Shown: positions 3,147-35,832, counted from the stretch's first letter. The stretch is 64,000 bases of DNA from Candidatus Kaiserbacteria bacterium (GCA_016182485.1 JACPGH010000003.1:6331-70330), one strand, 5' to 3'. Notes: a model not told the origin generated them from the letters alone. Numbers and translations are program-made.

Positions 3147-3614
3147 ATGTACAAAAATCGTTCCCGAGGTCTTGTCCTGAGCTTGTCGAAGGGCTTCACC
3201 CTCATCGAATTACTCGTAGTCATCGCCATCATTGGCATTCTCTCGGCCGTTGTGCTCGCTTCCTTGAACACGGCGCGCTCGAGGGGCAATGATGCGGCGA
3301 TTCAGTCGGACTTATCAGCCGTTCGAGCCCAGGCTGAAATCTTCTACGGCACTGGCAACACGTATGGCACAGCTGGCGCGAGTTGCACCACCGCCGGCAG
3401 TCTATTCGCCGACGCGACAATAGCAAGAGCCATCACTGGCGCAGAGTCGGCCAACGGATCGGCGAGCGTAGTTTGTAACAATTCGACAACCGCGTATGCG
3501 ATCTCCTCGCCGCTCGCGTCGGATGTTTCCAAATTCTGGTGCATCGATTCGACCGGTTTCGCTGGGCAGCGCGCCACCGCCCTCGGCACCGCGACTGTGT
3601 GCCCTGCGAGCTAA
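3147..3614 (+). CDS. pilA: Type IV major pilin (prepilin, class III signal)
   Basis: N-terminal KG|FTLIELLVVIAIIGILSAV prepilin cleavage/methylation motif with Glu at +5. C-terminal Cys pair forms a disulfide loop. Confidence 0.8.
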   Translation: MYKNRSRGLVLSLSKGFTLIELLVVIAIIGILSAVVLASLNTARSRGNDAAIQSDLSAVRAQAEIFYGTGNTYGTAGASCTTAGSLFADATIARAITGAESANGSASVVCNNSTTAYAISSPLASDVSKFWCIDSTGFAGQRATALGTATVCPAS

Positions 3615-3637: not shown

Positions 3638-4084
3638 ATGAAAAAAGGCTTCACCCTCATCGAATTACTCGTAGTCATCGCCATCATTGGCATTCTCTCG
3701 GCCGTTGTGCTCGCTTCCTTGAACACGGCGCGCAACAAGGGGAGCGATGCGGCGATACAGGCCGACTTGAGTAGCGTGCGCTCGCAGGCGGCGATATACT
3801 TCAACGAGAACGGCAATTACGGAACGGTGACTGAAGCGACAACCGGCTGTACCGCTCCTAACACGTTCTTCGTGTTGGATACGACCGTGGCTACCCAAGT
3901 TGCCGCAGCAGAAAACGCCAATGGCACGACGCTCGGCGTTGTATGCAATACTGCCGCGAACGGAGAAGCCTATGCTGTTTCGGCCGCGCTCGTGGCTAAC
4001 TCCGGATCTTACTTCTGTATCGACAGTGCGGGCGTAGCGACGACTACTGCTACGGGGCTCGGTGCGAATACGACCTGCTCATAG
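3638..4084 (+). CDS. Type IV pilin paralog (second tandem major pilin)
   Basis: ATG at 3638 gives MKKGFTLIELLVVIAIIGILSAVVLASLNTAR.... About 90 nt of 5' coding sequence are nucleotide-identical to the upstream pilin (3195-3288 versus 3649-3742). The C-terminus is divergent and has a Cys pair. Confidence 0.8.
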   Translation: MKKGFTLIELLVVIAIIGILSAVVLASLNTARNKGSDAAIQADLSSVRSQAAIYFNENGNYGTVTEATTGCTAPNTFFVLDTTVATQVAAAENANGTTLGVVCNTAANGEAYAVSAALVANSGSYFCIDSAGVATTTATGLGANTTCS

Positions 4085-15355: not shown

Positions 15356-15428
15356 AGCGGGGTAGAGGAGTCTGGTACCTCGGGAGGCCCATAACCTCCA
15401 GGCGTCGGTTCAAATCCGACCCCCGCAA
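15356..15428 (+). tRNA. tRNA-Met (anticodon CAU), possibly initiator-like
   Basis: Hand-folded cloverleaf. Acceptor stem is 6 bp plus an A1·A72 mismatch, with U8. D-stem gagg/cctc with GG in the loop. Anticodon stem ggagg/cctcc, loop cccataa giving CAU. T-arm gtcgg-TTCAAAT-ccgac. A11:U24 and the 1:72 mismatch are initiator-like. C33 is unusual. Confidence 0.65.
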
Positions 15429-15521
15429 CAAATTTTCAGAGAAAATTTGTGGCGAGGCTCGCCATAGACTCGCCTACGGCGGTCAAGGCGGCCCGCAACT
15501 GAACAGTGCTAGAGTTAGTCT

Positions 15522-15794
15522 ATGTACTTCGCTTACATTTTGGTAAGCGAACTGGATAAGCGTACCTATGTCGGTTTCTCGGATAATGTTGAGCGACGAC
15601 TAACTCAGCACAATGCTGGGCAAGTCACAGCGACGAAGCATCGCCGTCCGCTCCGCATATTCCATCAAGAAGAGTTTCAAACATTGAAAGAAGCAAAAAC
15701 GCGAGAATTGTGGTGGAAAAGTGGCAGCGGACGAAACGAATTAAAGAAGCTTTTCGCATCTAAAAATTGTAACGCCAGCTGTGCCCGTCCGTAG
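15522..15794 (+). CDS. GIY-YIG nuclease superfamily small protein (YhbQ/UPF0213-like)
   Basis: FAYILVSELDKRTYVGFSDNVERRLTQHN is a GIY-YIG motif. Confidence 0.7.
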   Translation: MYFAYILVSELDKRTYVGFSDNVERRLTQHNAGQVTATKHRRPLRIFHQEEFQTLKEAKTRELWWKSGSGRNELKKLFASKNCNASCARP

Positions 15795-16000
15795 CCTTTG
15801 GCGGAGGAGGGGAACTAGTACCGTTCCCCGTCAAAGTCGATACTGTACCGGCGCCCCTGTTCGGCTAGAAAAGCGAGCAAAAACCACGAAAGTGGTTTTT
15901 GCGTTTTCAGCATATACAGCATATATCCCAGTTCGATTCCGACTCTCGTATTCGGCGATGTTTCGTGTCGTGATCACGCCCGAAATGACCCGATTTCGAG

Positions 16001-16064
16001 CATGGGGGTTGGAATCGAACCGGAGAAACTCACTGATTACAACAGTTCTTGATTTCCCGCCCTC
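16001..16064. repeat. tRNA-like / T-arm-containing structured element (GGAATCGAAC family), copy next to the IS end
   Basis: gggggttggaatcgaaccgg...actgattacaacagttcttgatttcccgccc. About 75% identical to 23640-23700. The reverse complement GGTTCGATTCC is a canonical tRNA T-loop, but no complete cloverleaf could be folded. Confidence 0.4.
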
Positions 16065-17060
16065 TCTAGGGAACGAGCGTTTTCTAACCAATAGCTTGGA
16101 AACGTTTTGATGATAACGCCTGTAACGGCGTGCACAACTGAAGGCCGAAGTGAAGCCGCCGACCGTTATAGTGCGGAAGGTACTTTGCTAGTGCCTTGTT
16201 GAGCGCTTCGACGGTTCGCGACACCCCGTCGAGACACTCTTCCTGCAAGGTACGGTTGAATCGCTCCAAATGCGCATTGTCGTTCGGCCGGCGCACGCGC
16301 GAATGCCTGTGCACGGAGAATACTCGATCGGTGAACCATTGCGCCCATTCGCTCCCATGGTCGCTTTGGAGCGTTTTAAAGCGAAACGGCGCTAGCCGTT
16401 GGGCCCGCTGCACGAACCGCAAGGCCATGACCGTATTTGCATGCGGATACGCCCGGGCATATGCCCAGCGGCTGAACACATCAATGAGCGTGAAGACATA
16501 CACTCGCTGGCCTTCCGGTGTGAGGAGATGGATCGTATCGACCTGCACCAAATCGCCCGGCTTCTCGACATCCGGGCGCATTAGTGGCGGATGATACCGT
16601 TTCCAAGGCGAGCGCTTCTTCAAGAGACCCAGGCGGTCGAGCGTGCGCTTGACCGTCGAAAGCGAGACCGCCATGCCGTCGTTGATGAGTTCCTGGTGTA
16701 CGACCTCCGCGCTCCGCTTGAGAAGGAGCCGCTTGTGGAAGATTTTCCATACGAGCTCGGCAGAAAGCGCCTTGGGGTGATGCTTTGGGCGCGAGGACAG
16801 CGTGGGGATCGGATGATTGCCGTATCGCTTCGCCTTAGCCATCCATTTCGTGATAGTGCCTGGAGACACGCCGATGTATCGGGCGACTTGCCGGATTCCC
16901 CAGCCTCGGCGTACGAGCTGCGTGGCATCCCGGCGGACTTTCGGAAGATACGGATTTACCGAACCGACCTCCGGGCGCGTGGATACCATTGGAAAGATAC
17001 AGTATGTTCCGCAATTGTATTTCGCGCTCTTCGAACAAGCCGACACTGTGGCTGCGTTTC
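16040..17060 (-). mobile_element. IS481-family insertion sequence (approximate boundaries)
   Basis: Contains a DDE (rve) transposase ORF. Adjacent to a 5'-truncated ABC-F gene. Terminal inverted repeats not resolved by eye. Confidence 0.5.
16084..16989 (-). CDS. IS481-family DDE transposase
   Basis: HTH N-terminus (VRRGWGIRQVARYIGVSPGTITKW), rve core with SDHGSEW, and HSRVRRPNDNAHLERFNRTLQEE. Start taken at the internal Met, because the upstream 76 codons are low-complexity. Confidence 0.8.
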   Translation of the reverse strand: MVSTRPEVGSVNPYLPKVRRDATQLVRRGWGIRQVARYIGVSPGTITKWMAKAKRYGNHPIPTLSSRPKHHPKALSAELVWKIFHKRLLLKRSAEVVHQELINDGMAVSLSTVKRTLDRLGLLKKRSPWKRYHPPLMRPDVEKPGDLVQVDTIHLLTPEGQRVYVFTLIDVFSRWAYARAYPHANTVMALRFVQRAQRLAPFRFKTLQSDHGSEWAQWFTDRVFSVHRHSRVRRPNDNAHLERFNRTLQEECLDGVSRTVEALNKALAKYLPHYNGRRLHFGLQLCTPLQALSSKRFQAIG

Positions 17061-18400
17061 TCGAAAATAGGAGCATCTCTTGGCCGCTCGTACAGGCATC
17101 ACTCAATCGGATCTTCGGTATCACAAATGTCACACAGGATAAAGAAATGCGGGCACTATCCGGAGGCGAGCTCGCCAAGCTGTTGATTGCGATAGCTGAT
17201 ACGGGCAATCCCGACATTCTCTTGCTTGATGAGCCAACTAATCATCTCGACGCCGAGGGATTGGAAGTATTGAAGAACTATCTTCTTACGTTTAATGGGG
17301 CATTCATTGTGGTATCCCATGACCCCTTATTCCTGGATCACGTCATATCTACCATTTGGGAGATTGACAGAGGGGCTATTGCTCGCTTTGGCGGCAACTA
17401 CTCGGAGTACCAGGAACAGAAGCGATTGATCGAGGAAGCTCGCGAACGCGATTTTGAAGCAGCAAAGAAAGATGTTAAGAAAGCGCGCAGAGCAATCGAA
17501 GCTCGCGAGACACGCGTAGCCCGTGCGAATCGAGCGGGGAAGCAGTCGAAGGCTGAACCGAGCCGAGATAAGTTTGCCGAAGGATTTTTCCGTGGTCAAT
17601 CTGAGAAGACGGCTGGGAAACTAAAGCGCCAACAGGACCAAATGATTGAGGATCGTCAGCTGCGTGTCTCGCAGTTACAAAAGCCAAAGCGGAAGACAAC
17701 GCACGTTGTTCTTGAAGCTGGCGCTGAACAGTCTAAGCGGATGCTCGTCAGTGTATCGAACGGCTCATTGAGTATAGAAGGTAGAAGTCTAGTGCGGGAC
17801 ATTGGACTGCGGATAGAATTTGGCGACCGCATTGTCTTCACTGGTAAGAATGGTTCGGGGAAGAGTCTTTTGGTTAAGGCACTTATGGGTATGCAGGGAC
17901 CGTTCTCGTTTGAGGGAGTAGTCAAGCGCGGCGAAAGTCTCAAGACGGTCTACATGGATCAGAAGTATCAATCTATCGATCCCGAACTATCCATTCTCGA
18001 TAATCTTCTGCAGGCAAATCCACATTTGGATGAGAACGCAGCAAGAAATCAGCTCGGCAAGTTCTTATTCGGTGCAGATTCGAGCGTCAAGAAGCAAGCC
18101 GGGACGCTCTCAGGCGGCGAAACCGCTTGTCTCGTTCTTGCTCAAGTGACGTCCTCGCCGATTGATCTGCTTGTGCTCGACGAACCTACGAACAATCTTG
18201 ATATTGAGGCGCTCGATATCATCGCCGATGCCCTTGGGGATTTCCCAGGTGCGCTGGTAGTCATATCGCATAACGTGCATTTTTTATCGAGACTCGAAAC
18301 TGAACGTGCGTACGTCATAACCGGAGAGAGATTGAAGGAGATGAGATTCTTGCCTGAGGACGAAGCCGAGTTTTATTCAGAGCTTGTTGCGGCAGAATAA
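17021..18400 (+). pseudogene. ABC-F family ATPase, 5'-truncated (NBD1 Walker A / Q-loop missing) at the IS junction
   Basis: Homology begins at the NBD1 signature LSGGE and Walker B ILLLDEPTNHLD. A linker and a complete NBD2 (GKNGSGKS, LSGGE, LLVLDEPTNNLD) follow. No Walker A for NBD1 is found upstream in any frame. Confidence 0.7.
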
Positions 18401-18402
18401 CC

Positions 18403-18544
18403 AAAAGACGGGCGCTGGAATCGAACTACGCTGCGCAAAGCAAAAAATGGGGACAGGAATCGAACTCCGAGCCTATTCTGACGATGTTCGTTATCTTATA
18501 CGACCGCGAGAGATAACGAACATCGGATTTGAATACTTTCCGCC
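18403..18544. repeat. 142-bp direct repeat, copy A (contains two GGAATCGAAC motifs and a 13-bp-stem hairpin)
   Basis: Near-identical to 22079-22220 (2 mismatches). Starts right after the stop codon of the preceding gene. Internal palindrome gatgttcgttatc-N16-gataacgaacatc. Confidence 0.85.
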
Positions 18545-18617
18545 CCGACAGGCTACCTGATTTTCTTAGCGGTACGCCTTAAAAAATAAAAGTACTCTTG
18601 TGGTGCATCACGCAGGC

Positions 18618-18647
18618 AAAAGCCGCTCTTTCGAGCGGTTTTTTTGC
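18618..18647. terminator. Rho-independent terminator (bidirectional-type)
   Basis: aaagccgctc-tttc-gagcggttttttt. A GC stem plus a T-run, with an A-run on the other side. Confidence 0.7.
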
Positions 18648-18660
18648 GTTTGGAGTGTAC

Positions 18661-19245
18661 CTATTCAGACAAATCTTCGAGTGGCTTAGTCACCTTGTTT
18701 CGGAGCTTATTTTCTGAAGTTAAGGAAAGCAGAATACTTAATCCATGATCGTCGGCATTATTCACCGCGTCGAACGTGGCCTGATCAGCGAAATATACAT
18801 TGACCCCATTTTCGATCATGGCATCAAGGGCTGATGCATAATGGGTTTCTGAGATGGGCGTCACAGGATCGCGGCTCGTCCATTCTTTTTCTCCCATGCC
18901 AAGGTTAGGGTCAAAGTTAAAGGCGTTGCTTGAAACCTCATACATGGTTCCTCCGTGGTCCCTTTTGAGGAAATCATCCCTGTTCATGCAAATGGTCACG
19001 TAAGGTACGTCGCTGAAATATCCTATTTGCATCCAACTGTCGTCGTGACCCTCTACCAAGAATATCGACGCGAGCTCCTTATTAGGAGTAGCAAAAATGA
19101 CAGCACCTTCATTCTCACCGCGGTTGCGGCCTTCTCGCGGAGTCAGCTCCTGCAGGTTCGGGGTCTGGGCTGCAATATAAAGAACAGGCGGCTTTTCTTT
19201 CTTTTCAATACTCTGCCATTCCCGATTTCCCTCGGGACCTTCCAT
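18661..19245 (-). CDS. Hypothetical protein
   Basis: ORF with good composition. Start placed at MEGPEGNREW to avoid overlapping the convergent beta-lactamase-like gene. No recognisable motifs. Confidence 0.4.
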   Translation of the reverse strand: MEGPEGNREWQSIEKKEKPPVLYIAAQTPNLQELTPREGRNRGENEGAVIFATPNKELASIFLVEGHDDSWMQIGYFSDVPYVTICMNRDDFLKRDHGGTMYEVSSNAFNFDPNLGMGEKEWTSRDPVTPISETHYASALDAMIENGVNVYFADQATFDAVNNADDHGLSILLSLTSENKLRNKVTKPLEDLSE

Positions 19246-19302
19246 ATTAGAAATATAGCACAGTACTGCCCACGCCTGTTCGCCTCGCAGGAGTATACTT
19301 TC

Positions 19303-20373
19303 ATGATGGAAGACAGGATTGCAGAAATTGCTGGAGCGGCGATAGAGGGGCATACGTTTCCGGGGTGCGTCGTGGGCGTAGTGCGGAAAGACGGCGAGCG
19401 ACTAATTCTGCCGTTTGGTCATTTCACATACGAACCAAGTTCTCCGGCGGTCAGGGCAAATTCTATGTATGACACAGCTTCCATTACAAAGTCCATTCCA
19501 ACCGGCAGTCTGTGTCTTCAAATGATCGACCAGGGAAAGCTTAAGGTTACGGACAAACTTATCGATTATGTTCCGGAATTCAATAATTCGGACCGAGAAA
19601 ATGTTCTCATAAAGCACCTGCTAACATATACCATCGACGGATACGGTCTCGCCTCGACTCTTGACGGTCGTGATACGATTCAAAGCAAAACCGCGGAGCA
19701 GCTATTGCATCTACTCCTCACTCACGATTTCGAGAAGCGTCCGGGCACTGTTTTCAAGTACACAAATATACCCGCCGCGCTTTTGGGTCTCGTGATCGAG
19801 CGGCTGACCGGAAAGACAATTGACGTGCTTGCCGACGAGCATTTCTTCGTGCCCTTAGGAATGAGCCGGAGCACTTTTTATCCCGAGAAGTTTCCAATTG
19901 AGGAAATACCGCCAACAGAAATAGACAGTTGGCGCGGAGAAGTTCGCGGCGCGGTGCACGATGAGAGCGCTTACATAGCTAAACGCGATGGCAAAATATT
20001 TGGTCACGCTGGCCTCTTCTCTACGGCCGGCGATATTCTTTCTTTTCTTGGAATGCTTCTCGACGGCGGGACCTTAAGTGGAAAGAGGTTCTTTTCAGAA
20101 GATATCATCCGACATATGGAAACCAATCAAATTCCGGAACTCAACGACTTCACTGGCCTGGGCTGGGAATTAAATCAACCGCGCTATATGGGCAAATACT
20201 GCGGCGAGCACACGTTCGGCAAAACCGGCTTTACGGGGACGCTATGTGTTGTTGACCGCCAGAAAGGGGTCGCGTACGCAATTCTTTCTAATCGTATTTA
20301 CCCGAAGCGAGCCAAGGACTCTTCGGCGATCAACGCCTTCCGAGCGGCCATAGGAGAAATTATCTTGTCGTAA
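19303..20373 (+). CDS. Serine beta-lactamase / PBP4-like (class C-type esterase) family protein
   Basis: S-x-x-K active-site motif (ASITKS) near the N-terminus and a YxN-like region. 356 aa. Start at MMEDRIAE. Confidence 0.75.
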   Translation: MMEDRIAEIAGAAIEGHTFPGCVVGVVRKDGERLILPFGHFTYEPSSPAVRANSMYDTASITKSIPTGSLCLQMIDQGKLKVTDKLIDYVPEFNNSDRENVLIKHLLTYTIDGYGLASTLDGRDTIQSKTAEQLLHLLLTHDFEKRPGTVFKYTNIPAALLGLVIERLTGKTIDVLADEHFFVPLGMSRSTFYPEKFPIEEIPPTEIDSWRGEVRGAVHDESAYIAKRDGKIFGHAGLFSTAGDILSFLGMLLDGGTLSGKRFFSEDIIRHMETNQIPELNDFTGLGWELNQPRYMGKYCGEHTFGKTGFTGTLCVVDRQKGVAYAILSNRIYPKRAKDSSAINAFRAAIGEIILS

Positions 20374-20471
20374 TCCTTAATAGCGCAAGAAAAAAGCCCT
20401 TAAATGCTAGTTCCCGTCCGGGCCGTCGTTTAATGGGGGCAGGAATACCAGACTCAAGCTATACTTAGCGC

Positions 20472-20855
20472 ATGAAAACTATCCTTATTGATGCCGTAGA
20501 TGCCTTCGTTATAGAAGGCGAGGGCATCTATAAGCCGCTTTACGATCTGCTTGAGAAGTACTCGAATCGAAAGATCATTCTTACGAACGCCAACGATGAA
20601 CAGATGGTCAAATTCGGCCTGAACGATATGCCCTATGAGGTTTTCACACTCAAGCACAATCCTGACAAACCAGACCCAGCCTACTTTAAAACCATGCTTG
20701 CGCATTTCGGCCTAAAACCAGGAGATGTCCTTTATTTTGAACACAACCCAGATGCGGTTAAGGGCGCAGAGTCAGTCGGTATCCTCTCCTATTACTACGA
20801 CAGCGAGAAAAAGGATGTCGGGACCCTTAAGGAATTCCTTGACGCGAACCTATGA
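20472..20855 (+). CDS. HAD-superfamily hydrolase-like small protein
   Basis: LIDAVDAF (motif I-like), and K / EHNPDA-like motifs. 127 aa. Confidence 0.5.
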   Translation: MKTILIDAVDAFVIEGEGIYKPLYDLLEKYSNRKIILTNANDEQMVKFGLNDMPYEVFTLKHNPDKPDPAYFKTMLAHFGLKPGDVLYFEHNPDAVKGAESVGILSYYYDSEKKDVGTLKEFLDANL

Positions 20856-21049
20856 CCATCTCGTACGACGATTTTGAGAAAGTAGATATCCGAGTCGGGA
20901 AGATACTTGAGGCACAGGATTTCCCAGAGGCGCGGAATCCAGCATTCATGCTGAAGATCGATTTCGGTAAGGAGATTGGTGTCAAAGTCTCGAGCGTGTG
21001 TCGAGATTGGCAGCAAACTACAGTAATCTATGAAGCTCAAAAACGATAA
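20852..21049 (+). pseudogene. Truncated paralog of the tRNA-binding-domain (CsaA/Trbp111-like) gene
   Basis: The first 48 codons are nearly identical at protein and DNA level to 24402-24545 (ISYDDFEKVDIRVGKILE.QDFPEARNPAF). The sequence then diverges and stops at 65 aa, versus 112 aa for the intact copy. Confidence 0.65.
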
Positions 21050-21323
21050 GTATAAAAAGGCGCGAGGAGGGTATTCTCGATTGTTGGATATCGCCTGTCA
21101 GAAATGTGGCATCTCCATTTGTGAGTACCAAAAAGACGGAGCAGGAAACTTGCGACGAATGTATGTCGACAGGATTATTGATCCTAAGATTTCTTTGGCC
21201 CGAAAAGACCTGACTTGTCCGAAACGACATTTGTTGGGAGTGAAGATAATTTACGAAAAAGAGAAAAGACCGGCGTTCAGGTTGTTTGTTGATTCGGTTA
21301 CAAAAAGGATTATTAAAATCTGA
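21030..21323 (+). CDS. Hypothetical small Cys-containing protein
   Basis: CQKCGISICEY...CPK suggests a zinc ribbon. Weak support. Confidence 0.3.
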   Translation: MKLKNDKYKKARGGYSRLLDIACQKCGISICEYQKDGAGNLRRMYVDRIIDPKISLARKDLTCPKRHLLGVKIIYEKEKRPAFRLFVDSVTKRIIKI

Positions 21324-21324
21324 G

Positions 21325-22077
21325 ATGGAAACAAACGGTAGTCTAATACAAACTTGCCAAAAATTGATTGATGCCTACAAAACAGGCAAGATTGGACAGA
21401 CTCGTATGCCGGAAGATTCGAATCCTGGGTTCGCTGAAGATAAATGGGATATGCGTCTCGCTTACTTCACTTTACCAATGGCACTCAACTATCAGCGGGA
21501 TAGCTATAAACTCTGGGAGGCAGCACTCGAGACTTTTCGTGATCCAGAAACGCACTTTGTGTTTGATATCGCAGAGGTTTCTTCAAGACGAGAAGAGGAA
21601 GTAAGAGCAGCGCTACTGAAACATAGACTTGCATTGCAGCCGAATAAACATATCCATACGTGGCGCATCATTGCCACGACCGTGAAGAATAATTGGGGCT
21701 CGTTCGATAATTTTATGAAGGCCACAGACGGAGATTTTCTTAAACTCAAGCAACTCGTCCAGTCTGATTTCAAGAAAGGATTCCCGTATCTTTCGGGACC
21801 GAAAATCTTCAATTACTGGTCGTTCATTATCAGCACGTACGGAGGAGTCAACCTCAAGAATAGATATCAGATTGATATCGCGCCGGACACCCACATTATT
21901 CAGTGCTCGGTGAAGCTTGGTGTCATCACGCAAGGTGAGGCCGAGAAACTGTCGAAAGAGAATATCTCGCAACGCTGGAGAGAGATTCTGAAGGGAAGCG
22001 GTATCGACCCGATAGATATGCATCCGCCTCTTTGGTTTTGGAGTAGAAACAATTTCATATTTGATCAGATTGGCTAA
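21325..22077 (+). CDS. HhH-GPD-like DNA glycosylase superfamily protein (weak)
   Basis: FPYLSGPKIFNYWSFII...IAPDTHIIQCSVKLGVI resembles the HhH-GPD helix-hairpin-helix and Asp loop. Start at METNGS. Confidence 0.4.
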   Translation: METNGSLIQTCQKLIDAYKTGKIGQTRMPEDSNPGFAEDKWDMRLAYFTLPMALNYQRDSYKLWEAALETFRDPETHFVFDIAEVSSRREEEVRAALLKHRLALQPNKHIHTWRIIATTVKNNWGSFDNFMKATDGDFLKLKQLVQSDFKKGFPYLSGPKIFNYWSFIISTYGGVNLKNRYQIDIAPDTHIIQCSVKLGVITQGEAEKLSKENISQRWREILKGSGIDPIDMHPPLWFWSRNNFIFDQIG

Positions 22078-22078
22078 T

Positions 22079-22220
22079 AAAAGACGGGCGCTGGAATCGA
22101 ACTACGCTGCGCAAAGCAAAAAATGGGGACAGGAATCGAACTCTGAGCCTATTCTGACGATGTTCGTTATCTTATACGACCGCGAGAGATAACAAACATC
22201 GGATTTGAATACTTTCCGCC
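22079..22220. repeat. 142-bp direct repeat, copy B
   Basis: See copy A. Two mismatches; the hairpin has a single arm mismatch. Confidence 0.85.
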
Positions 22221-22358
22221 GTCTGGTTGTAGAATGCCAGTTCATTTCGTCAGGGGTAGTATAGTACCGCCAGGCATCTGACTCCGTAAAGAGCACAAAA
22301 GTCGCGATGTACGTCGCGGCATTTGTGTTTGTCCAGGCACGCTATACTATGAATCATC

Positions 22359-22892
22359 ATGATCATCCATTTCATTACTGGAAGCAAGAACAAGCTCGCA
22401 GAAATGCAAGCGATTTTAGGCGATGTCGAGCAACTTGATATTGCTCTGCCAGAAATACAGGAAATAGACGCGCATAAGATAATCCGCGCCAAGCTGGAGG
22501 AAGCCCTCAAGCATAAAAAGGAAGCATTTATAGTAGAGGACACATCACTCTACTTCGACGCTCTCAACGGCCTCCCAGGCCCACTAATCAAGTGGTTTAT
22601 GAAGACTGTTGGTAATGATGGCCTCTTCAAAATGGCGGAATCCTTTGGGAACTACGGAGCTGAGGCGAAGACGATCATCGGCTATACCGATTGGTCTGGA
22701 GACATTCAATTCTTCGAAGGATCAGTGCGAGGCGCGATAGTCGCCCCACGAGGCGAGACTAATTTCGGCTGGGACCCCATCTTTCAGCCGGAAGGAAAAG
22801 ACAAGACTTTTGCCGAGCTAACGGCCGAAGAGAAGAATGCATTTAGCATGCGCAAGCTTGCCGCCGAGAAACTGAAAACACATTTATTATGA
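22359..22892 (+). CDS. rdgB: Non-canonical purine NTP pyrophosphatase (ITPase, RdgB/HAM1 family)
   Basis: ITGSKNKLAEM N-terminus; TSLYFDAL; FGWDPIFQPEG; EEKNAFSMR. Confidence 0.85.
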   Translation: MIIHFITGSKNKLAEMQAILGDVEQLDIALPEIQEIDAHKIIRAKLEEALKHKKEAFIVEDTSLYFDALNGLPGPLIKWFMKTVGNDGLFKMAESFGNYGAEAKTIIGYTDWSGDIQFFEGSVRGAIVAPRGETNFGWDPIFQPEGKDKTFAELTAEEKNAFSMRKLAAEKLKTHLL

Positions 22893-23311
22893 CTATTATG
22901 ACGGACTACTCAAAATTCTTGGTCAAAGAATATACACACTGGCTAGTGAATGTGCACGAGAACCAGGGATACCTTGGCAGATGCATTGTATGGTGCAGGC
23001 GCGAGGATGCGCTTGATCTAGCAGACGCAACTGAGGCAGAGCAAAAGGAACTCATTACCATCCTCGGCGAAATACGAGAAGCTACGAAGCGAGCATTCCA
23101 GGCAGACTGGTTCAACTATGCGTTTCTCGGCAACGGCACACGACATCTCCATGGGCATTTCATCCCGCGTTACTCATCATCGCGAATGTTTGAAGGGATG
23201 ACTTTCATCGACGACCGATGGGGTCATAACTACAGAACCAATCACGATTTCGTTACGCCGCCCGAAGTATTGGATGCGGTAAGGGAAAAATTGAAAGCCG
23301 AGCTACAATAA
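22889..23311 (+). CDS. HIT-family (histidine triad) hydrolase
   Basis: HLHGHFIPR histidine triad motif. Confidence 0.8.
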   Translation: MTIMTDYSKFLVKEYTHWLVNVHENQGYLGRCIVWCRREDALDLADATEAEQKELITILGEIREATKRAFQADWFNYAFLGNGTRHLHGHFIPRYSSSRMFEGMTFIDDRWGHNYRTNHDFVTPPEVLDAVREKLKAELQ

Positions 23312-23315
23312 ATTT

Positions 23316-23633
23316 ATGAGTCAACACAAAATTGTCGTCTATGTTCCTTTAACCAATACCGATTCCGTAAGGGAAGCTATTGGCACGGCTGGAGGCGGCA
23401 AACTAGGTAAGTATTCCTTTTGCAGCTTTTCAACGCGAGGCATTGGCAGATTTAAGCCTGAAGAAGGGGCGCATCCGCACATTGGGACAGTTGGAGAATT
23501 GGAACAGGTAGAAGAAGAACGAATCGAGGTCACTTGCGATTCTCGAGTTGTGGGGAATGTTCTTGCAGCGATCAAGCGGGTGCATCCATACGAAGAAGTC
23601 GCGATGGATGTATGGCAACTGGAGAGTTATTGA
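23316..23633 (+). CDS. Small conserved alpha/beta protein (PII/Nif3-insert-like, COG3323-type; uncertain)
   Basis: KIVVYVP...AIGTAGGG...HPYEE pattern. 105 aa. Confidence 0.45.
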   Translation: MSQHKIVVYVPLTNTDSVREAIGTAGGGKLGKYSFCSFSTRGIGRFKPEEGAHPHIGTVGELEQVEEERIEVTCDSRVVGNVLAAIKRVHPYEEVAMDVWQLESY

Positions 23634-23635
23634 TG

Positions 23636-23725
23636 GGGAGCGGAATCGAACTGGTGCAGTCTACTGTTTACACCAGTTCTTGAGTTCCCGTCCCGGTCGT
23701 GCAAGACGGGGGCAGGAACCCCCGT
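23636..23725. repeat. tRNA-like / T-arm-containing structured element (GGAATCGAAC family)
   Basis: ggggagcggaatcgaactggtg...actgtttacaccagttcttgagttcccgtccc followed by GC hairpins (cccgtc/gacggg; ggggg-caggaa-ccccc). The 3' part recurs at 20408-20447. Confidence 0.4.
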
Positions 23726-23775
23726 ACTTTACTGATTATCAGATTCAAAGCTATACTTGGTACAACAGACGGGTT

Positions 23776-24396
23776 ATGAAAAAGAAGACACAAATACTTA
23801 TCATTCATGGCGGAATGACCTTCAAAAACGAGAAGGATTATCTGCATTTCTTGAAGAACAGAGAAATTTCTCTTAAAAAGAAGGTAAGTTGGGCTGGTGA
23901 CTATCTGGATAAAGAATTAGGAAGAGGACTTGAGATCATCAGGCCGCGCATGCCACTACAGGACAATGCGAAGTATAGAGATTGGAAGATTCATTTTGAG
24001 CGACATCTCCCGCATCTAAGGAGTAATGCCATTTTAGTTGGATCTTCATTGGGTGGTATTTTTCTCGCGAGGTACCTATCTGAAAATAAGTTACCTAAAA
24101 AAGCGTTGTCGATATATTTAATATGCCCACCTTTTGACAATTCCGTAAAAGGGGAAGATTTAGTTGGTGGCTTTACGCTTAAGTCTGACCTCTCCTTGCT
24201 TAAGAAAAATTCCAAGAACCTGCATCTGCTTTTTTCAAAGGATGATGAAACCGTGCCGGTCTCTCACGCCAAAAAATATAGGGGAAAGCTGAAAGACGCG
24301 CATATTGTTGTCTACAAAAGCAAGAACGGACACTTCAAGATATCCACATTTCCGGAAATCATAAAAATGATCAAGGAAGATGTTAAAGGATCATAA
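23776..24396 (+). CDS. Alpha/beta-hydrolase (YdeN/RBBP9-like serine hydrolase)
   Basis: GSSLGG nucleophile elbow, Asp and His downstream. AT-rich relative to its surroundings. Start at MKKKTQ. Confidence 0.7.
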   Translation: MKKKTQILIIHGGMTFKNEKDYLHFLKNREISLKKKVSWAGDYLDKELGRGLEIIRPRMPLQDNAKYRDWKIHFERHLPHLRSNAILVGSSLGGIFLARYLSENKLPKKALSIYLICPPFDNSVKGEDLVGGFTLKSDLSLLKKNSKNLHLLFSKDDETVPVSHAKKYRGKLKDAHIVVYKSKNGHFKISTFPEIIKMIKEDVKGS

Positions 24397-24401
24397 ATCC
24401 T

Positions 24402-24740
24402 ATGATCTCATACGATGATTTTGAGAAAGTAGATATCCGAGTCGGGAAGATTCTCGAAGTGCAGGATTTTCCTGAAGCGCGGAATCCGGCATTCAAGCTG
24501 AAGATAGATTTCGGCCCTGAGATCGGCACGAAATTATCTAGCGTGCAGGCGGTAGACGCACACACCAAAGAAGAGCTACAGGGAATTCTAGTCTGCTGCG
24601 TAGTCAACTTCCCGCCAAAAAAGATAGGCCCATTCGAATCCGAAGTCCTTACGCTCGGGTTCAAGAATACGGCAGGTATCGGATGGGTGCTCATCACGCC
24701 CGCCAAAGCGAGTGTCGAGATTGGCAGTAAGTTGCAATAA
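24402..24740 (+). CDS. csaA: tRNA-binding domain protein (CsaA/Trbp111/MetG-C-like), intact copy
   Basis: 112 aa OB-fold tRNA-binding domain pattern (DIRVGKI...E). A truncated paralog lies at 20852. Confidence 0.75.
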   Translation: MISYDDFEKVDIRVGKILEVQDFPEARNPAFKLKIDFGPEIGTKLSSVQAVDAHTKEELQGILVCCVVNFPPKKIGPFESEVLTLGFKNTAGIGWVLITPAKASVEIGSKLQ

Positions 24741-24747
24741 ATCCAAT

Positions 24748-25317
24748 ATGGAAATCGGAATCTGGGGAGACAGCATTACCTACGGCGCGGGTGACACTAT
24801 GGCACTCGGATGGGTAGGGCGACTGCGAAAATTGCTTGAGAAGAACGAAGATATAAGTGTCTACAACTTTGGCGTGTGTGGAGATACGACTGACGATCTG
24901 GCCAAGCGCTTCCTGGTGGAGGCGGACTCTATTAAACCGAATGTCGTCATTTTCGCCATTGGAATAAACGACTCAAAATACTCCGTTGGTGAGACTGCAA
25001 GCGAGGTCCCACTCGAGAGCTACAAACAGAATATGCGAGAGCTCATAAAGCTCGCGAGAAAGTACACCGACAAAATTCATATCGTTGGGGCTACGAAAGT
25101 CGATGAAACTTCTATGCGGGAGAGCGGTACACGCTTTGTGAACGATACGATCCGGTCTTATAACAATTTCCTCAAAGAATTTTCTGAATCAGAAGGCCTA
25201 CTCTATGTAGATGTTTTCGATGCGCTTGATATACATACCGATTTAGATGATGGCCTGCATCCGAACGCACAGGGCTATGAGAAATTATTCAATATGATAC
25301 AAGAATTCGTAAAATGA
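24748..25317 (+). CDS. SGNH/GDSL hydrolase family protein
   Basis: IWGDSITYGAGD (GDS block I), block III GINDS, and the DxxH region. Confidence 0.75.
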   Translation: MEIGIWGDSITYGAGDTMALGWVGRLRKLLEKNEDISVYNFGVCGDTTDDLAKRFLVEADSIKPNVVIFAIGINDSKYSVGETASEVPLESYKQNMRELIKLARKYTDKIHIVGATKVDETSMRESGTRFVNDTIRSYNNFLKEFSESEGLLYVDVFDALDIHTDLDDGLHPNAQGYEKLFNMIQEFVK

Positions 25318-25346
25318 CGAGGGTCGGACATTAGTGCATAGCCCTA

Positions 25347-32138: not shown

Positions 32139-32722
32139 GGCCGCTTCGAGTCGCGCGGGAGCTTCTTGCCGGTCTTCACCGATTTCGTATCTTTTGTGAC
32201 GTCTTTCGCGCTCGCGTATTTGTCCTTTTCTTTGATCAAGAGCCAAGCATTGTCCTTCCCGCCCTTCTGATTTCGGATTTTCACGAGCGCGAAGCCGCCT
32301 TGGAGCTTTTTGCCGAGCAGGACGAATTTAAGCTCTCCTTCGCCGTACCCCTGTCTAAGCTTTTCGCGGCTCTCTTTCGGGTCGGCCGTTTCGCTCGAGG
32401 TATACAGCCCCTCGTCCCAGACTATGACGTCTCCCGCGCCGTACTCTCCCTCCGGAATGACGCCCTCGAAATCTTTGTATGAATACGGGTGGTCCTCGAC
32501 CTCCATCGCGAGCCGCTTGTCGGCCGGATTGAGCGACGGGCCTTTCGGCACGGCCCAGCTCTTCAGTACGCCGTCTAGCTCGAGGCGGAAATCGTAATGC
32601 AGGCGCGAAGCGTCGTGCTTCTGCACGACGAAATGAAGTGCTCCCGTCCGTGAAGCTTTTTGCGGTTTGGGTTCCGGTGTTTTAGAGAATTTGCGTTTCT
32701 TTTTATATTCAGCTAACGGCAT
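32135..32722 (-). CDS. LigD 3'-phosphoesterase (PE) domain protein, separate ORF
   Basis: HYDFRLE and SWAVPKG motifs of the LigD PE domain. Lys-rich C-terminal tail. Confidence 0.8.
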   Translation of the reverse strand: MPLAEYKKKRKFSKTPEPKPQKASRTGALHFVVQKHDASRLHYDFRLELDGVLKSWAVPKGPSLNPADKRLAMEVEDHPYSYKDFEGVIPEGEYGAGDVIVWDEGLYTSSETADPKESREKLRQGYGEGELKFVLLGKKLQGGFALVKIRNQKGGKDNAWLLIKEKDKYASAKDVTKDTKSVKTGKKLPRDSKRP

Positions 32723-32768: not shown

Positions 32769-32842
32769 ATAAAAAGCTAATGAACGCGGTTCCCGTGTTC
32801 AGGGCAGCTATGTACTTTCGTGCTTTCAGAGGAGATGACGCC

Positions 32843-33475
32843 ATGGCGAAAGCTGTGTCCCCATCCGCAGTGAATCCCATTAGCATTGGGCAGGCCGCGA
32901 AGTTCCTCGACCTGCAGATGGCCGCGCTACGCAAGAGCGGCCTGCCGAGCGGACCAACGCAGCAGGTGCTCGAGAGCCAGGGCGCCGCTCTGGCCGACGA
33001 GTTCGTCACATTGGTCCGTAGGCGCGTCGAGGCAATCTCGGATCTAATCGTCCGCGTCGTCGCGAAGGTCGACCGCTCGCGCACGCCGCAGGAGGCACTC
33101 GACGCGACTGGTCGAACGCAGTACGTCGACCGCGGTGTCGCGAAGGCGATGCCGCGTGGCACGGGCGAGGGTGCCAAGACGGAATTTTTCGAGCTCGATC
33201 TCTCGCGGCGCGGCGGATGGATCAGCGACTCTGACCTCGACAAGGAGTACGCGCTCCGTGGCCTCGTCCCCGAGGATCCTTACTCGCTCGCGGCACAGAA
33301 CGAGGCTGATCCGGCCTTCGCCGACGAGCACCCCAACGCCACGCACTGGAAGGATGCGAATGGCAGTTGGTGTTACGCGGCGTTCTTCCTCTGGCGCGAT
33401 GAGCGCTACGTGCGCGTCCACCGCTGCGACAGCGACTGGCTCGACCGCTGGTGGTTCGCCGGTCGCCGCAAGTAG
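32843..33475 (+). CDS. DGR target (variable) protein with C-terminal VR
   Basis: The 3' ~100 nt (VR) pair with the downstream TR and differ almost only at TR adenines. The C-terminus ...LWRDERYVRVHRCDSDWLDRWWFAGRRK corresponds to TR-encoded ...LWNDERNLNVNRNDNDWNDNWWFAGRRN. Start could also be 32780 or 32810. Confidence 0.7.
   Translation: MAKAVSPSAVNPISIGQAAKFLDLQMAALRKSGLPSGPTQQVLESQGAALADEFVTLVRRRVEAISDLIVRVVAKVDRSRTPQEALDATGRTQYVDRGVAKAMPRGTGEGAKTEFFELDLSRRGGWISDSDLDKEYALRGLVPEDPYSLAAQNEADPAFADEHPNATHWKDANGSWCYAAFFLWRDERYVRVHRCDSDWLDRWWFAGRRK
33375..33472 (+). repeat. DGR variable repeat (VR)
   Basis: Aligns with 33792-33889. TR AAC codons correspond to VR TAC, CGC, CAC, TGC, AGC, CTC and CGC. 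There are 11 A-site substitutions and one non-A (C to G) change. An identical GC-rich 3' end ctggtggttcgccggtcgccgcaa (IMH-like) is followed by hairpins at 33480-33580. Confidence 0.8.
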
Positions 33476-33791
33476 TTCTAGGGACTCGATCCTCGGTTCT
33501 TTCAGAACCTTGGGATTGAGTCCTTGCATTCGGGCTCCGCATTGCCTCACGGCGTGCGGAGTCCTTTCGTTTTGATACAATCGATAACGGCGCTAGGCGA
33601 ATACGCGGGCGACCACGCGTCTCCCGCTGCCCGCGATCACGGTTTCGAGTAGCGTGGTGTATGTAGACCTTAAAAATTGAAGATACTTGGTGCGGACCTC
33701 TCTGGCATTATAATGCCGAATCAGATACAGCTCGGAGATCGGCAGAGGCCTTCAATGGGCAGTGGTACGGATGGAGGTCCGCACATTGCGA

Positions 33792-33889
33792 CGTTCAACC
33801 TCTGGAACGATGAGCGCAACCTGAACGTCAACCGCAACGACAACGACTGGAACGACAACTGGTGGTTCGCCGGTCGCCGCAACTCTTCA
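33792..33889 (+). repeat. DGR template repeat (TR)
   Basis: AAC-rich (8 AAC codons in the VR reading frame). The overlapping six-frame ORF 33677-33985 is incidental. Confidence 0.8.
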
Positions 33890-34303
33890 TTCCCCGGCCC
33901 CGCCCTCATGCGGGGCTTGGTTTTGTTTGGTCAATTGACCATTCCAGCCGCCGAGCATTCTGCCGACCTCCTCAAGCGGAATTGAGAGAGCGGCGTATCG
34001 CTTTGTCTCGAACGAATTTGTTTCCCAGAGCACCATAAGCAGCAGCTTGACGGTATCGAGCTTGCGGATGGCGAGCCGCACCCACGGTTGCTTCTCACTG
34101 CGCTGCAGGACTCCCGCGAATCCGGCGGCCTCGATAACGTCGATAAACAATGCATCAATGCGGTTGCCGAGCGTGTAGCGGTGGAGCTTCGGGAGTTTCT
34201 GATATTCGTACCAAAGCAGATATGCCGCCTTTAATTTCTGCAAAACCGGAAGAATCGTCGGGGGGGGGGGTTGCTCATGGAGTCTTGCATACGACAATAT
34301 CAT
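33887..34303 (-). CDS. avd: DGR accessory variability determinant (Avd)
   Basis: C-terminus EVGRMLGGWNGQ and the upstream helices match Bordetella phage bAvd (EVGRILGSWIAR..., LPKLHRYTLGNRID versus IPRKHGVAREMF). 139 aa. Contains a PPPP stretch encoded by the C11 run. Confidence 0.8.
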   Translation of the reverse strand: MILSYARLHEQPPPPTILPVLQKLKAAYLLWYEYQKLPKLHRYTLGNRIDALFIDVIEAAGFAGVLQRSEKQPWVRLAIRKLDTVKLLLMVLWETNSFETKRYAALSIPLEEVGRMLGGWNGQLTKQNQAPHEGGAGE

Positions 34304-34744
34304 TTCCGTCGAAAACCTGCTTGCCGCATGGCAGGAATTCGCGAAAGGGAAGCGCAAGAAAAGCGATGTGCAGGAATTCGGGCGATATTTGATGCAGAAT
34401 ATTTTGGAGCTACACCGCGACCTTGCGGCCGGCACCTTTAAACACGGCGGGTGCGGACGATTTCGTTATCCTTTCCGCTGAACGAACACAGCTGCTCGAG
34501 TCTCTACGATATATCGTAGTATTTCTCCGCGCCCGTCTGAAACTCACATTGCATCCCGATAAAGTCTCTGTCTAGAGAAGCGACGATTGCCTCATATCTA
34601 GGCATGCTTCGCCATGGCAATACGAACAAACTGCAACAAGTTCCACTCAATGCCGCTAGACTGCTTTCTCAAGCTTGCGGATCCTGCGCTCGTGATCGAA
34701 AATCCGATCCCTATCTCTATCGTGAGCGTCGGAAAGAGATGTGA
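34222..34744 (+). pseudogene. DGR reverse transcriptase remnant (N-terminal region only; frameshifted, multiple stops, 3' truncated)
   Basis: Frame-0 translation DNIISVENLLAAWQEFAKGKRKKSDVQEFGRYLMQNILELHRDLAAGTFKHG aligns with the bRT N-terminus (DQITTWENLWDAYRKTSHGKRRTWGYLEFKEYDLANLLALQAELKAGNYERG). RP..TH..A (motif 2) is recognisable further on. The ATG at 34222 is in frame only if the G tract were 12 nt. Stops at 34479, 34519, 34558 and 34742. No YxDD region anywhere downstream. Confidence 0.7.
34260..34270. repeat. G11 (C11) homopolymer tract at the divergent Avd / RT 5' ends
   Basis: cgtcgggggggggggttgc read directly. It lies within the Avd N-terminal codons and immediately upstream of the RT homology. 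Confidence 0.9.
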
Positions 34745-35037: not shown

Positions 35038-35832
35038 CTACCGCGTTCCGGAGTGGGCGGGGCGGCGCTCTTGCTCAAGGCTCTTGCGCAGGGCTTCCAT
35101 GAGATTCCGCATATCGGTCGGGACGGGAGCTTCTTCTTCGGATACCTTGATCGGCTTGCCTTTCGCCTTGCGGGCGATAACTTTCTTCAGATCGCCGGTA
35201 TAGGTGTCCTTATATTGGCTCGCGTCGAAATGTTCCTCGAGCTGCTTGATGAATGCGACGGTAAGGTCGAATTCTTTGCTTGAAAATTTAGTAGATTCGG
35301 GGATATGCAGGTCTGTAGGCTTGCGTAATTCCTCTTCGAATCGCAGGCGGATGAGCATGAGCGCCTTGCCCTCGGGCTTGAGCATGGCGATATGCTCGCG
35401 GTCTTTCAGAACGAACGTGCCTATGCCGACCTTTTTAGAACGCGCCAGCGCTTCGCGCAGGAGCACGTACGCTTTCTCGGCGCTCGGATCCGGCTCCAGA
35501 TAATACGGCTTTTCTATGAACCGGCTTTCTACCTCCTCCTCGTTCGCGAAGCTCTGCACGTCGATCGTCTTGGTCTTCTTGGGCGCCGCTTTCTCGAAAT
35601 CCTCATCGGTCAGTATCACATAATCGCCCTTCTGATATTCGTAGCCTTTTACGATATCTTCGGGTTTCACCTCCTCATTCGTCCCGCGACATACCTTGAG
35701 GTAGCTGATGGGGCAGTGCCCATGCTTGTCGAGCAGGCGGAACGAGAGCGCCCGCTCCTCGCTCGCGTTGTAAAGCTTTACGGGTATGGATACTAGGCCG
35801 AAAGTAAGCGCGCCTGACCAGATTGCTCTCAT
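35038..35832 (-). CDS. ku: Ku protein (NHEJ DNA end-binding)
   Basis: MRAIWSGALTFGLVSIPVKLY N-terminus and Ku core. Lys-rich C-terminal tail. 264 aa. Confidence 0.9.
   Translation of the reverse strand: MRAIWSGALTFGLVSIPVKLYNASEERALSFRLLDKHGHCPISYLKVCRGTNEEVKPEDIVKGYEYQKGDYVILTDEDFEKAAPKKTKTIDVQSFANEEEVESRFIEKPYYLEPDPSAEKAYVLLREALARSKKVGIGTFVLKDREHIAMLKPEGKALMLIRLRFEEELRKPTDLHIPESTKFSSKEFDLTVAFIKQLEEHFDASQYKDTYTGDLKKVIARKAKGKPIKVSEEEAPVPTDMRNLMEALRKSLEQERRPAHSGTR

Follow-up and report, generated by a model that had tools for sequence, protein, structure and literature searches.

What are the two nearly identical direct repeats that bracket a low-GC segment on a contig of a Candidatus Kaiserbacteria bacterium? 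They lie in a 64-kb stretch of DNA (GCA_016182485.1 JACPGH010000003.1:6331-70330; 64,000 nucleotides, hereafter the window), in which positions are counted from the first letter. A sequence-only reading of the window had proposed that these 142-bp repeats and the cargo between them arose either as an attL/attR-type duplication, that is, as a pair of attachment (att) sites, or as a recombination-generated duplication. The explanation that we favor, with moderate confidence, is that the repeats represent the left arms of two junction sites that have decayed. These sites would belong to an array of small gene modules without an integrase, stacked in tandem downstream of a transfer RNA gene, tRNA-Met(CAU), in a clade of Parcubacteria.

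The repeats and the element family to which they belong

The repeats occupy positions 18403-18544 and 22079-22220, and the claim that they differ at two positions is correct (99% identity). No third copy is present in the 64-kb window. Each begins immediately after a stop codon, as had been stated: copy 1 starts 2 nt past the TAA of an ABC-F open reading frame (ORF; stop at 18400) and copy 2 starts 1 nt past the TAA of an ORF that ends at 22077. Each also carries two exact copies of the motif GGAATCGAAC, at 18417 and 18456 in copy 1 and at 22093 and 22132 in copy 2, again as claimed. The hairpin described as having a 13-bp stem is present, with a stem that is longer than described. In copy 1, it is 15 bp long, with arms CGATGTTCGTTATCT and AGATAACGAACATCG at 18482-18496 and 18511-18525, and one of the two mismatches between the copies weakens the stem in copy 2. 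The reported AT-richness of 18.4-25.4 kb is borne out by a GC profile in which values of 0.44-0.50 prevail across ~17-26 kb, compared to 0.55-0.60 on either side. In independent Logan assemblies of this organism, contigs break off within copy 2 and within a duplication of the csaA gene, as true repeats would lead one to expect, which rules out an artefact of the present assembly.

Over its left 60-65 nt, which contain the two GGAATCGAAC motifs, the repeat is 82-92% identical to the left arm of a ~200-nt element that occurs in at least 18 related loci of Parcubacteria/Patescibacteria, to which we refer by L numbers. This left part is matched in at least seven Patescibacteria/Parcubacteria metagenome-assembled genomes of GTDB, including Parcubacteria GW2011_GWA1_56_13. 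The double-motif scan of species-representative genomes was a loose one, with 7 of 119 loci being relevant among the matches listed and the rest being mostly unrelated tRNA-remnant loci, and a stricter arm pattern recovered 16 further metagenome contigs. From its 5' side, the element consists of motif 1 (a G-run, 3-4 variable nt, and GGAATCGAAC), a conserved A-rich spacer, and motif 2, which is of like design. Its middle comprises a center of type A or type B and then a pseudo T-arm, for example GTCCA-GTTCGATTA-TGGAC, and its 3' side comprises a stretch that opens with CCCCGCAACACGGTTGTGA, motifs 4 and 5, which are degenerate motif copies in direct orientation, and an intrinsic terminator.

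The motif GGAATCGAAC is the reverse complement of the T-loop GTTCGATTCC, and motifs 1 and 2 are therefore inverted partial copies of the T-loop/acceptor region. Thus, the earlier description of GGAATCGAAC as tRNA T-arm-like needs to be revised, because the motifs are reverse-complement T-loops that lie in the arm of the element and not in its tRNA-derived core. Nor are the 142 nt complete in themselves. In the relatives, the tRNA-derived core, GCAACACGGTTGTGA, and the trailer that follows it lie to the right of the part that is repeated in the window, and the core is absent from the entire window even when three mismatches are allowed. Neither the arm pattern nor the core is found in IMG/VR viral contigs, on which basis a phage origin of the element was rejected.

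The two window copies depart from the element in the same way on their left side and in different ways on their right side. On the plus strand, the left arm of copy 1 runs from motif 1 (18417-18426) through the A-rich spacer to motif 2 (18456-18465) and is followed by a private insertion of 73 nt (18472-18544), which holds the hairpin (18482-18525). Copy 2, also on the plus strand, has motif 1 at 22093-22102, motif 2 at 22132-22141, and the same insertion at 22148-22220, with its hairpin at 22158-22201 bearing one mismatch. The insertion takes the place of the element center in both copies and is absent from every related locus. We rejected the notion that it is a mobile unit in its own right, as no further copy exists in any locus examined. 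Beyond it, copy 1 is joined directly to a right-half remnant (18545-18650, plus strand) made up of the motif-5-like sequence CCGACAGGC, a type-T3 trailer, and an intrinsic terminator at ~18612-18645, the pseudo T-arm and the core having been deleted. The right-half remnant of copy 2 (22221-22345, plus strand) retains the remainder of the center, a degenerate pseudo T-loop, CCAGTTCATTTCG, at ~22236-22256, and motif 5, GTACCGCCAGGCATC; it continues into a type-T2 trailer with its terminator (~22297-22331, plus strand) and then the Ham1 promoter, and here the core has been deleted as well. Alignment with L123, L128, and L070 shows that the T3 trailer of copy 1 resembles that of L123, and alignment with the elements of L132 and L022 and with the trailer of the genuine tRNA-Met gene of L070 shows that the T2 trailer of copy 2 is like the latter.

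The different trailer types, taken together with the shared private insertion, indicate that the copies are two older paralogous junctions that were recently homogenized, and not the pair produced by one integration. Homogenization may have proceeded by gene conversion or crossing-over after one junction had gained the 73-nt hairpin insertion. In contrast to the 99% identity of the repeats, the csaA duplicates of the same region are 82% identical.

Several other identities for the element were considered and set aside. It has no Rfam match, either at the gathering threshold or at E<=10, and ARAGORN finds nothing with default settings. A minus-strand tRNA or transfer-messenger RNA (tmRNA) gene in the repeat was rejected because its T-stems are unpaired locally and both ARAGORN and Rfam are negative, while relaxed ARAGORN searches give results that are inconsistent among copies (tRNA-Arg, tRNA-Ile, and a permuted tmRNA on the minus strand). 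A small conserved ORF across the element was also rejected: a minus-strand ORF is present in the window (22102-22296) and in L070, but the frames differ and there are single-nt indels.

The 15-bp core, tRNA-Met(CAU), and the exchange of modules

The core GCAACACGGTTGTGA ties the element family to a tRNA gene. Its 15 bp are the last 5 nt of tRNA-Met(CAU) and 10 nt of trailer, and in L118, L128, and L070 the genuine tRNA-Met(CAU) gene has behind it the same trailer as the elements have. When tRNA 3' halves are aligned with the right halves of elements, the homology is collinear; it starts at the T-loop, extends past the terminator, and includes an invariant block, CC.GCAACACGGTTGTGA. Exact copies of the core number 1-3 per locus in 18 related loci and 0 in 119 unrelated loci. 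To the left of the core stand the tRNA, a pseudo T-arm with center A or center B, or one of eight other contexts. On its right, the core is followed by one of two sequence types and by one of four terminator types. Each of the three left types is found with each of the two right types (3x2 combinations), and the terminators reassort too. Core copies are co-oriented within each contig (25 copies on 10 contigs; chance ~2^-15), and the elements lie 2-10 kb downstream of the tRNA, in the same orientation, in 7/7 tRNA-containing loci. The existence of the family, its homology to the tRNA 3' end and trailer, the co-orientation of its copies within a contig, and the reassortment of its halves at the core are shown here.

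The tRNA-Met(CAU) gene of the window (15356-15429, plus strand; ARAGORN; 53.6 bits with Rfam) has the 3' end CCCCGCAAC and an unpaired 1:72 position, and it is probably an initiator. It occupies its native position after LigA-GatA-ORF190, as it does in L070, L118, L128, and L131, and this gene order is found wherever upstream sequence is present. An intact target tRNA is also present in L070, L047, L118, and L128. Thus, two features of a tRNA-targeting att system, an intact target tRNA and hybrid sites that reassort at the core, are found. A third, co-oriented repeats of the tRNA 3' end, is found in the related loci and not in the window, where the copies keep only the arm, and a fourth, a tyrosine or serine recombinase in or beside the element, was not detected by Pfam searches and a motif scan. 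In L047, a fuller inverted T-loop/acceptor copy stands beside an insert of 230 bp, on either side of which the tRNA end is directly repeated over 17 bp. This insert is one of several places at which homology breaks off at the edge of a motif, the others being the position after the GDSL gene in the window and sites in L107 and L137.

In two loci, tRNA-Met(CAU) is split between U33 and C34 by a ~236-nt insertion (L131, 4826-5116; L124, ~880-1160). The insertion begins after U and ends in G, as would be expected of a group I intron, and ARAGORN and Rfam at its gathering threshold miss both the split tRNA-Met and the insert in these loci. The partial tRNA 3' halves of L131 and L124 were considered as a second class of att site and rejected, as they belong to complete tRNA-Met genes with an intron-like insertion.

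The genes found between elements recur among genomes in varying order; they are Ham1, HIT, ORF105, Ser-hydrolase, csaA, GDSL, beta-lactamase, HAD, and ORF97. Homologues of the genes that lie between the two repeats occur in other orders in L047, L107, and L122. Between the window and L122, the csaA-GDSL module has a DNA identity of 90.9%, as compared to 68.5-68.8% for the flanking core genes, which encode a P-type ATPase and a glycosyltransferase on the same contigs. These comparisons show the modules to have been exchanged horizontally. The neighboring cargo in relatives includes restriction-modification, Fic, reverse transcriptase-protease, and TIR-like genes as well as insertion sequence (IS) elements, which is typical of variable hotspots.

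Given the position of the tRNA-Met gene, which is the anchor of the variable region, and that of a truncated start of motif 1, GACGAGGGTCGG, at 25316-25327 (plus strand), which overlaps the GDSL stop codon and is the right edge of the low-GC region, the variable region measures ~10 kb (15356 to 25327) and not 3.5 kb. A full element follows the same GDSL gene in L122 and L128.

Favored and rival explanations

Under the explanation that we favor, an intact junction would be attP-like, with a P arm containing two inverted T-loop/acceptor-like 17-mers, the pseudo T-arm, the 15-bp core GCAACACGGTTGTGA, and a P' arm corresponding to the tRNA trailer with its terminator. A circular P-core-P' module would integrate at the core, either that of the tRNA or that of a junction already in place, and the product would consist of the tRNA and P' arm, a module, a P-core-P' junction, a module, and so on. 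The exchange would be carried out by a site-specific recombinase acting in trans, for which motifs 1, 2, 4, and 5 might, as a guess, serve as arm-type binding sites. This model accounts for the presence of the trailer behind the tRNA, for complete composites at internal junctions, for co-orientation, and for reassortment at the core. In the window, the system is a fossil, as the core is gone from both copies and from the tRNA trailer. Because the core is lost, the window copies are no longer able to serve site-specific recombination; today, they can act only as a 142-bp stretch of homology through which the 3.7-kb segment might be deleted or duplicated by RecA-type recombination.

The locus may be compared to several known systems. 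It is like tRNA-anchored accretion islands, among them the Dehalococcoides ssrA-linked islands, which reportedly arise by tandem accretion at the tmRNA gene, and the Prochlorococcus tycheposons, in having an intact tRNA at the proximal end, an interior in which parts of the 3' end of that tRNA recur in one orientation, an atypical composition, cargo modules shared by horizontal transfer, and many remnants without an integrase. In tycheposon islands, partial tRNAs are scattered within tRNA-anchored islands, together with tandem integrations and integrase-less remnants (10.1101/2020.12.28.424599). Unlike such islands, the loci described here have no integrase that was seen in any of them, their modules are tiny (1-6 genes), their repeated site is a composite of ~200 nt in which two inverted T-loop-like motifs are combined with a pseudo T-arm, and the core that it shares with the tRNA takes in no more than the final 5 nt of the tRNA and 10 nt of trailer. 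The imperfect palindromes directly after the stops of co-oriented cargo, and the shuffling of module order between genomes, recall the attC sites of integron cassette arrays, and, as with clusters of attC sites lacking integron integrases (CALIN), a recombinase may act in trans. However, the R''/R' consensus of attC is not matched, with ATCGAAC and GTTCGAT failing at the fourth position of RYYYAAC and GTTRRRY; the sites follow groups of several adjacent or overlapping genes; they are homologous to a tRNA 3' region; and there is no IntI or attI. Finally, the layout recalls lambda attP, a ~200-bp site with a short core and repeated ~20-nt motifs, which here are inverted on one side (1, 2) and direct on the other (4, 5). 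In contrast to lambda attP, the arm motifs resemble core-side sequence, and the likeness is an analogy of layout with no integrase, IHF, or Xis partner known.

A number of observations weigh against the junction-site explanation. Neither the window nor ~170 kb of related loci yielded a tyrosine or serine recombinase in a search that was partly heuristic: Pfam was applied to every ORF of the island and to 20 ORFs from related loci, a motif scan covered the window and 23 loci, and the rest of the window was searched heuristically. The recombinase-type matches were solely IS481/IS3 DDE transposases and one Y1 transposase. In particular, the window contains no integrase, for which the sequence-only reading had proposed to look nearby on the contig, and its only nearby recombinase is an IS481-family DDE transposase. 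Neither an excised circle nor an empty site was observed, the short-read contigs ending inside the repeat. Some module boundaries have no element (SerHyd|csaA, and csaA|GDSL as compared to csaA|HIT), and ordinary recombination, homologous or illegitimate, must therefore be responsible for part of the shuffling. The lysyl-tRNA synthetase gene, a core gene, lies between the tRNA and the element in L118. Moreover, a simple integration model has no need of inverted core-like motif copies in the arm, and the strong conservation of the elements could mirror an RNA function as opposed to recent transfer.

That last point bears on a rival that is compatible with the junction-site explanation, namely that the element is a functional 3'-untranslated-region RNA module (T-arm-like structure, long hairpins, and a terminator) that was co-opted from the tRNA-Met 3' region to process, stabilize, or terminate operon transcripts and whose copies are kept by selection. 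We regard this as unlikely. It would fit an element that is always oriented as its upstream gene is, begins at or beside the stop of that gene, and ends in an intrinsic terminator. It would also fit the retention of the pseudo T-stem with a different sequence (GTCCA/TGGAC as compared to GCCGG/CCGGC) and of pairing that is possible on the plus strand only (U.G in L118, L107, L122, and L047; A-U to G-C in L007), and folding of copy 1 on the plus strand gives z = -4.05. However, the element belongs to no Rfam family at any threshold, the RNAalifold consensus is weak on both strands, the comparison of minimum free energies between strands is equivocal, with inconsistent differences, and some long helices favor the minus strand (G.U there, A.C on the plus strand). 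Acceptor-like pairing shows no covariation by inspection, an all-against-all analysis of column covariation being too noisy, and the window copies have no T-arm. The idea that the left end of motif 1 pairs with motif 4 (GA[C/T]GGG with CCC[G/A]TC) was rejected; it fits 6/9 informative sequences, which, by inspection, is no better than chance given their relatedness.

It is similarly improbable, in our judgment, that the motifs are selfish palindromes derived from a tRNA T-arm that were spread by a transposase and settled after stop codons. Such elements would be akin to repetitive extragenic palindromic (REP) sequences and bacterial interspersed mosaic elements (BIMEs) with their REP-associated tyrosine transposase (RAYT), a Y1 enzyme, or to miniature inverted-repeat transposable elements (MITEs), all of which share with the present motifs the character of short extragenic palindromes that lie downstream of genes, form clusters and variants, and carry small insertions. 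In keeping with this, hairpin units that pair GGAATCGAAC with GTTCGATTCC (two units described below as the b-unit and the e-unit, and motifs 2 and 3) often lie directly after stops, related loci contain 5-10 motif copies per 10 kb, and small palindromic insertions are frequent within the elements. An IS200-like Y1 transposase gene (Y1_Tnp; PF01797, 1.9e-14) is located at 2264-2935 of L130, ~630 nt upstream of an element; it was found in this one locus only. What speaks against a REP- or MITE-like origin is distribution and structure. All seven exact copies of GGAATCGAAC in the 64-kb window fall within 15.9-23.7 kb, that is, within 8 kb, so that the dispersal expected of a MITE, which the sequence-only reading had named as grounds for refuting its proposal, is not seen. 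Moreover, the core copies are strictly co-oriented, there is no RAYT in the window, inspection of the ends of both copies of the 142-nt unit revealed neither terminal inverted repeats nor target duplications, and the long collinear homology to the tRNA trailer is not MITE-like.

A simple attL/attR pair, left by a single integration of a 3.5-kb element with the 142-bp repeats as the two copies of its attachment site, is very unlikely even though low-GC cargo is bracketed by direct repeats near a tRNA gene, for the repeat lacks the tRNA-derived core and consists of arm plus private insertion, the right flanks are two different old trailer types, more element fragments lie inside and outside the segment, and an integrase was not found. 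Thus, the sequence-only reading was right about the kind of structure, att-like junctions tied to a tRNA and exchanged low-GC cargo, and wrong or incomplete about its anatomy, the repeats not being the attL/attR pair of one insertion.

The variable region, its surroundings, and the significance of the junctions

From left to right, the variable region contains the following features in addition to the tRNA and the repeats. The trailer of the tRNA (15430-15910, plus strand) is disrupted, its core being split into GCAACA and TGTGGCG by a 17-nt hairpin, AATTTTCAGAGAAAATT. A GIY-YIG ORF (15522-15794; PF01541, 3e-13) is inserted in this trailer, between TGTGGCG and GGGAACTAG (15430-15810), and the remainder (15795-15910, plus strand) holds motifs 4 and 5 and a type-T1 terminator; positions 15811-16060 are 84-90% identical to the trailers of L131, L132, L124, and L128. 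At ~7900-7960 of L122, a 31-nt footprint whose end sequence is the same (GCCCGTCCGTAGC…GGAGG) is found at the equivalent position of the trailer, which suggests a small mobile GIY-YIG cassette that may target the trailer. Next comes the b-unit (15925-16075, plus strand), an inverted pair of GTTCGATTCC (15931) and GGAATCGAAC (16011) ~80 nt apart, which in relatives comes after T1/T4 terminators, and then the gene for the IS481-family DDE transposase (16084-17217, minus strand; rve, rve_3, and LZ_Tnp_IS481 domains). Insertion of the latter cost the ABC-F gene that ends at 18400 its N-terminus; of the first ABC domain, the signature/Walker B part is all that is left, and this remnant directly upstream of copy 1 is a probable pseudogene.

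The module between the repeats extends from 18661 to 22077 on mixed strands. The sequence-only reading had assigned four genes to a cargo of about 3.5 kb. Two of these are well supported, the beta-lactamase-fold gene (19294-20373; Beta-lactamase PF00144, 7e-49) and the truncated csaA-like ORF (20852-21049; tRNA_bind), while the HAD gene (20472-20855) has a weak Pfam match (5e-4) and the AGOG-like ORF (21286-22077) has a weak AGOG/HhH-GPD-like match (1.2e-3) that is below the Pfam cutoff. Two further ORFs, ORF230 (230 aa, minus strand) and ORF97 (97 aa, 21030-21323), have no family in Pfam. A motif fragment ending in ATGGGGGCAGGAAT lies within the module at 20408-20446. The tRNA_bind copy of the truncated csaA (20858-21026) is 82% identical to the full gene at 24405-24740 and is joined to ORF97 in a frame-overlap; it is a recombination scar within a gene that is common to several modules. 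To the right of copy 2, the e-unit (23634-23720, plus strand), a decayed hairpin of the GGAATCGAAC-type motif (GGGGAGCGGAATCGAACTGGTG…CACCAGTTCTTGAGTTCC), directly follows the stop of ORF105.

Elsewhere in the window, a pair of 95-nt repeats (33377-33471 and 33788-33882) are 82% identical, and nearly all of the differences are positions at which the second copy has A and the first another base (runs of AAC codons). The pair has the signature of a putative diversity-generating retroelement, in which the variable repeat would form the C-terminal end of a 231-aa ORF (32780-33475) and the template repeat would lie 411 nt downstream. The next ORF (33887-34435, minus strand) looks like an Avd-type four-helix-bundle protein, and no reverse transcriptase ORF was seen within ~2 kb of the repeats. 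Judging by translations, there are also a candidate Ku gene (35038-35832, minus strand) and multi-domain LigD-like genes, one of which ends at 32722 (minus strand), at ~28-36 kb, which suggest a candidate non-homologous end-joining set, and a putative type IV pilus/pseudopilin cluster at 1-8 kb with paralogous pilins (repeat D1, 3189-3345 and 3644-3800).

For the window alone, the outcome is a modest one, in that the repeats are the fossils of a junction system. For the relatives that retain the core, a bolder proposition may be made, although we think its chances small: the composites would be live recombination sites of a cassette-acquisition platform anchored at tRNA-Met, at which integrase-less modules equipped with promoters and terminators would be taken up, piled one behind another, and passed between species. 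All of this would take place at GCAACACGGTTGTGA through a recombinase whose gene lies elsewhere. If this were true, the pseudo T-arm and the inverted T-loop motifs would be the recognition architecture of the recombinase, and the platform would be functionally integron-like, yet built on a tRNA end. While the kind of structure is known, this junction family seems to be undescribed, and a literature search on integrons and tRNA-linked islands in Patescibacteria found nothing specific.

The members of the Candidate Phyla Radiation have tiny genomes, and gene exchange among them is poorly known. A locus of the type described here offers a concrete route for it, with a variable region fixed to tRNA-Met in which modules of 1-6 genes are common to species whose core genes are ~30% diverged. 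These modules contain hydrolases, a beta-lactamase-fold enzyme, nucleotide-cleaning enzymes, and defense genes. The 15-bp core and the arm motif together provide a search handle with which such regions may be mapped and the responsible recombinase may be found.

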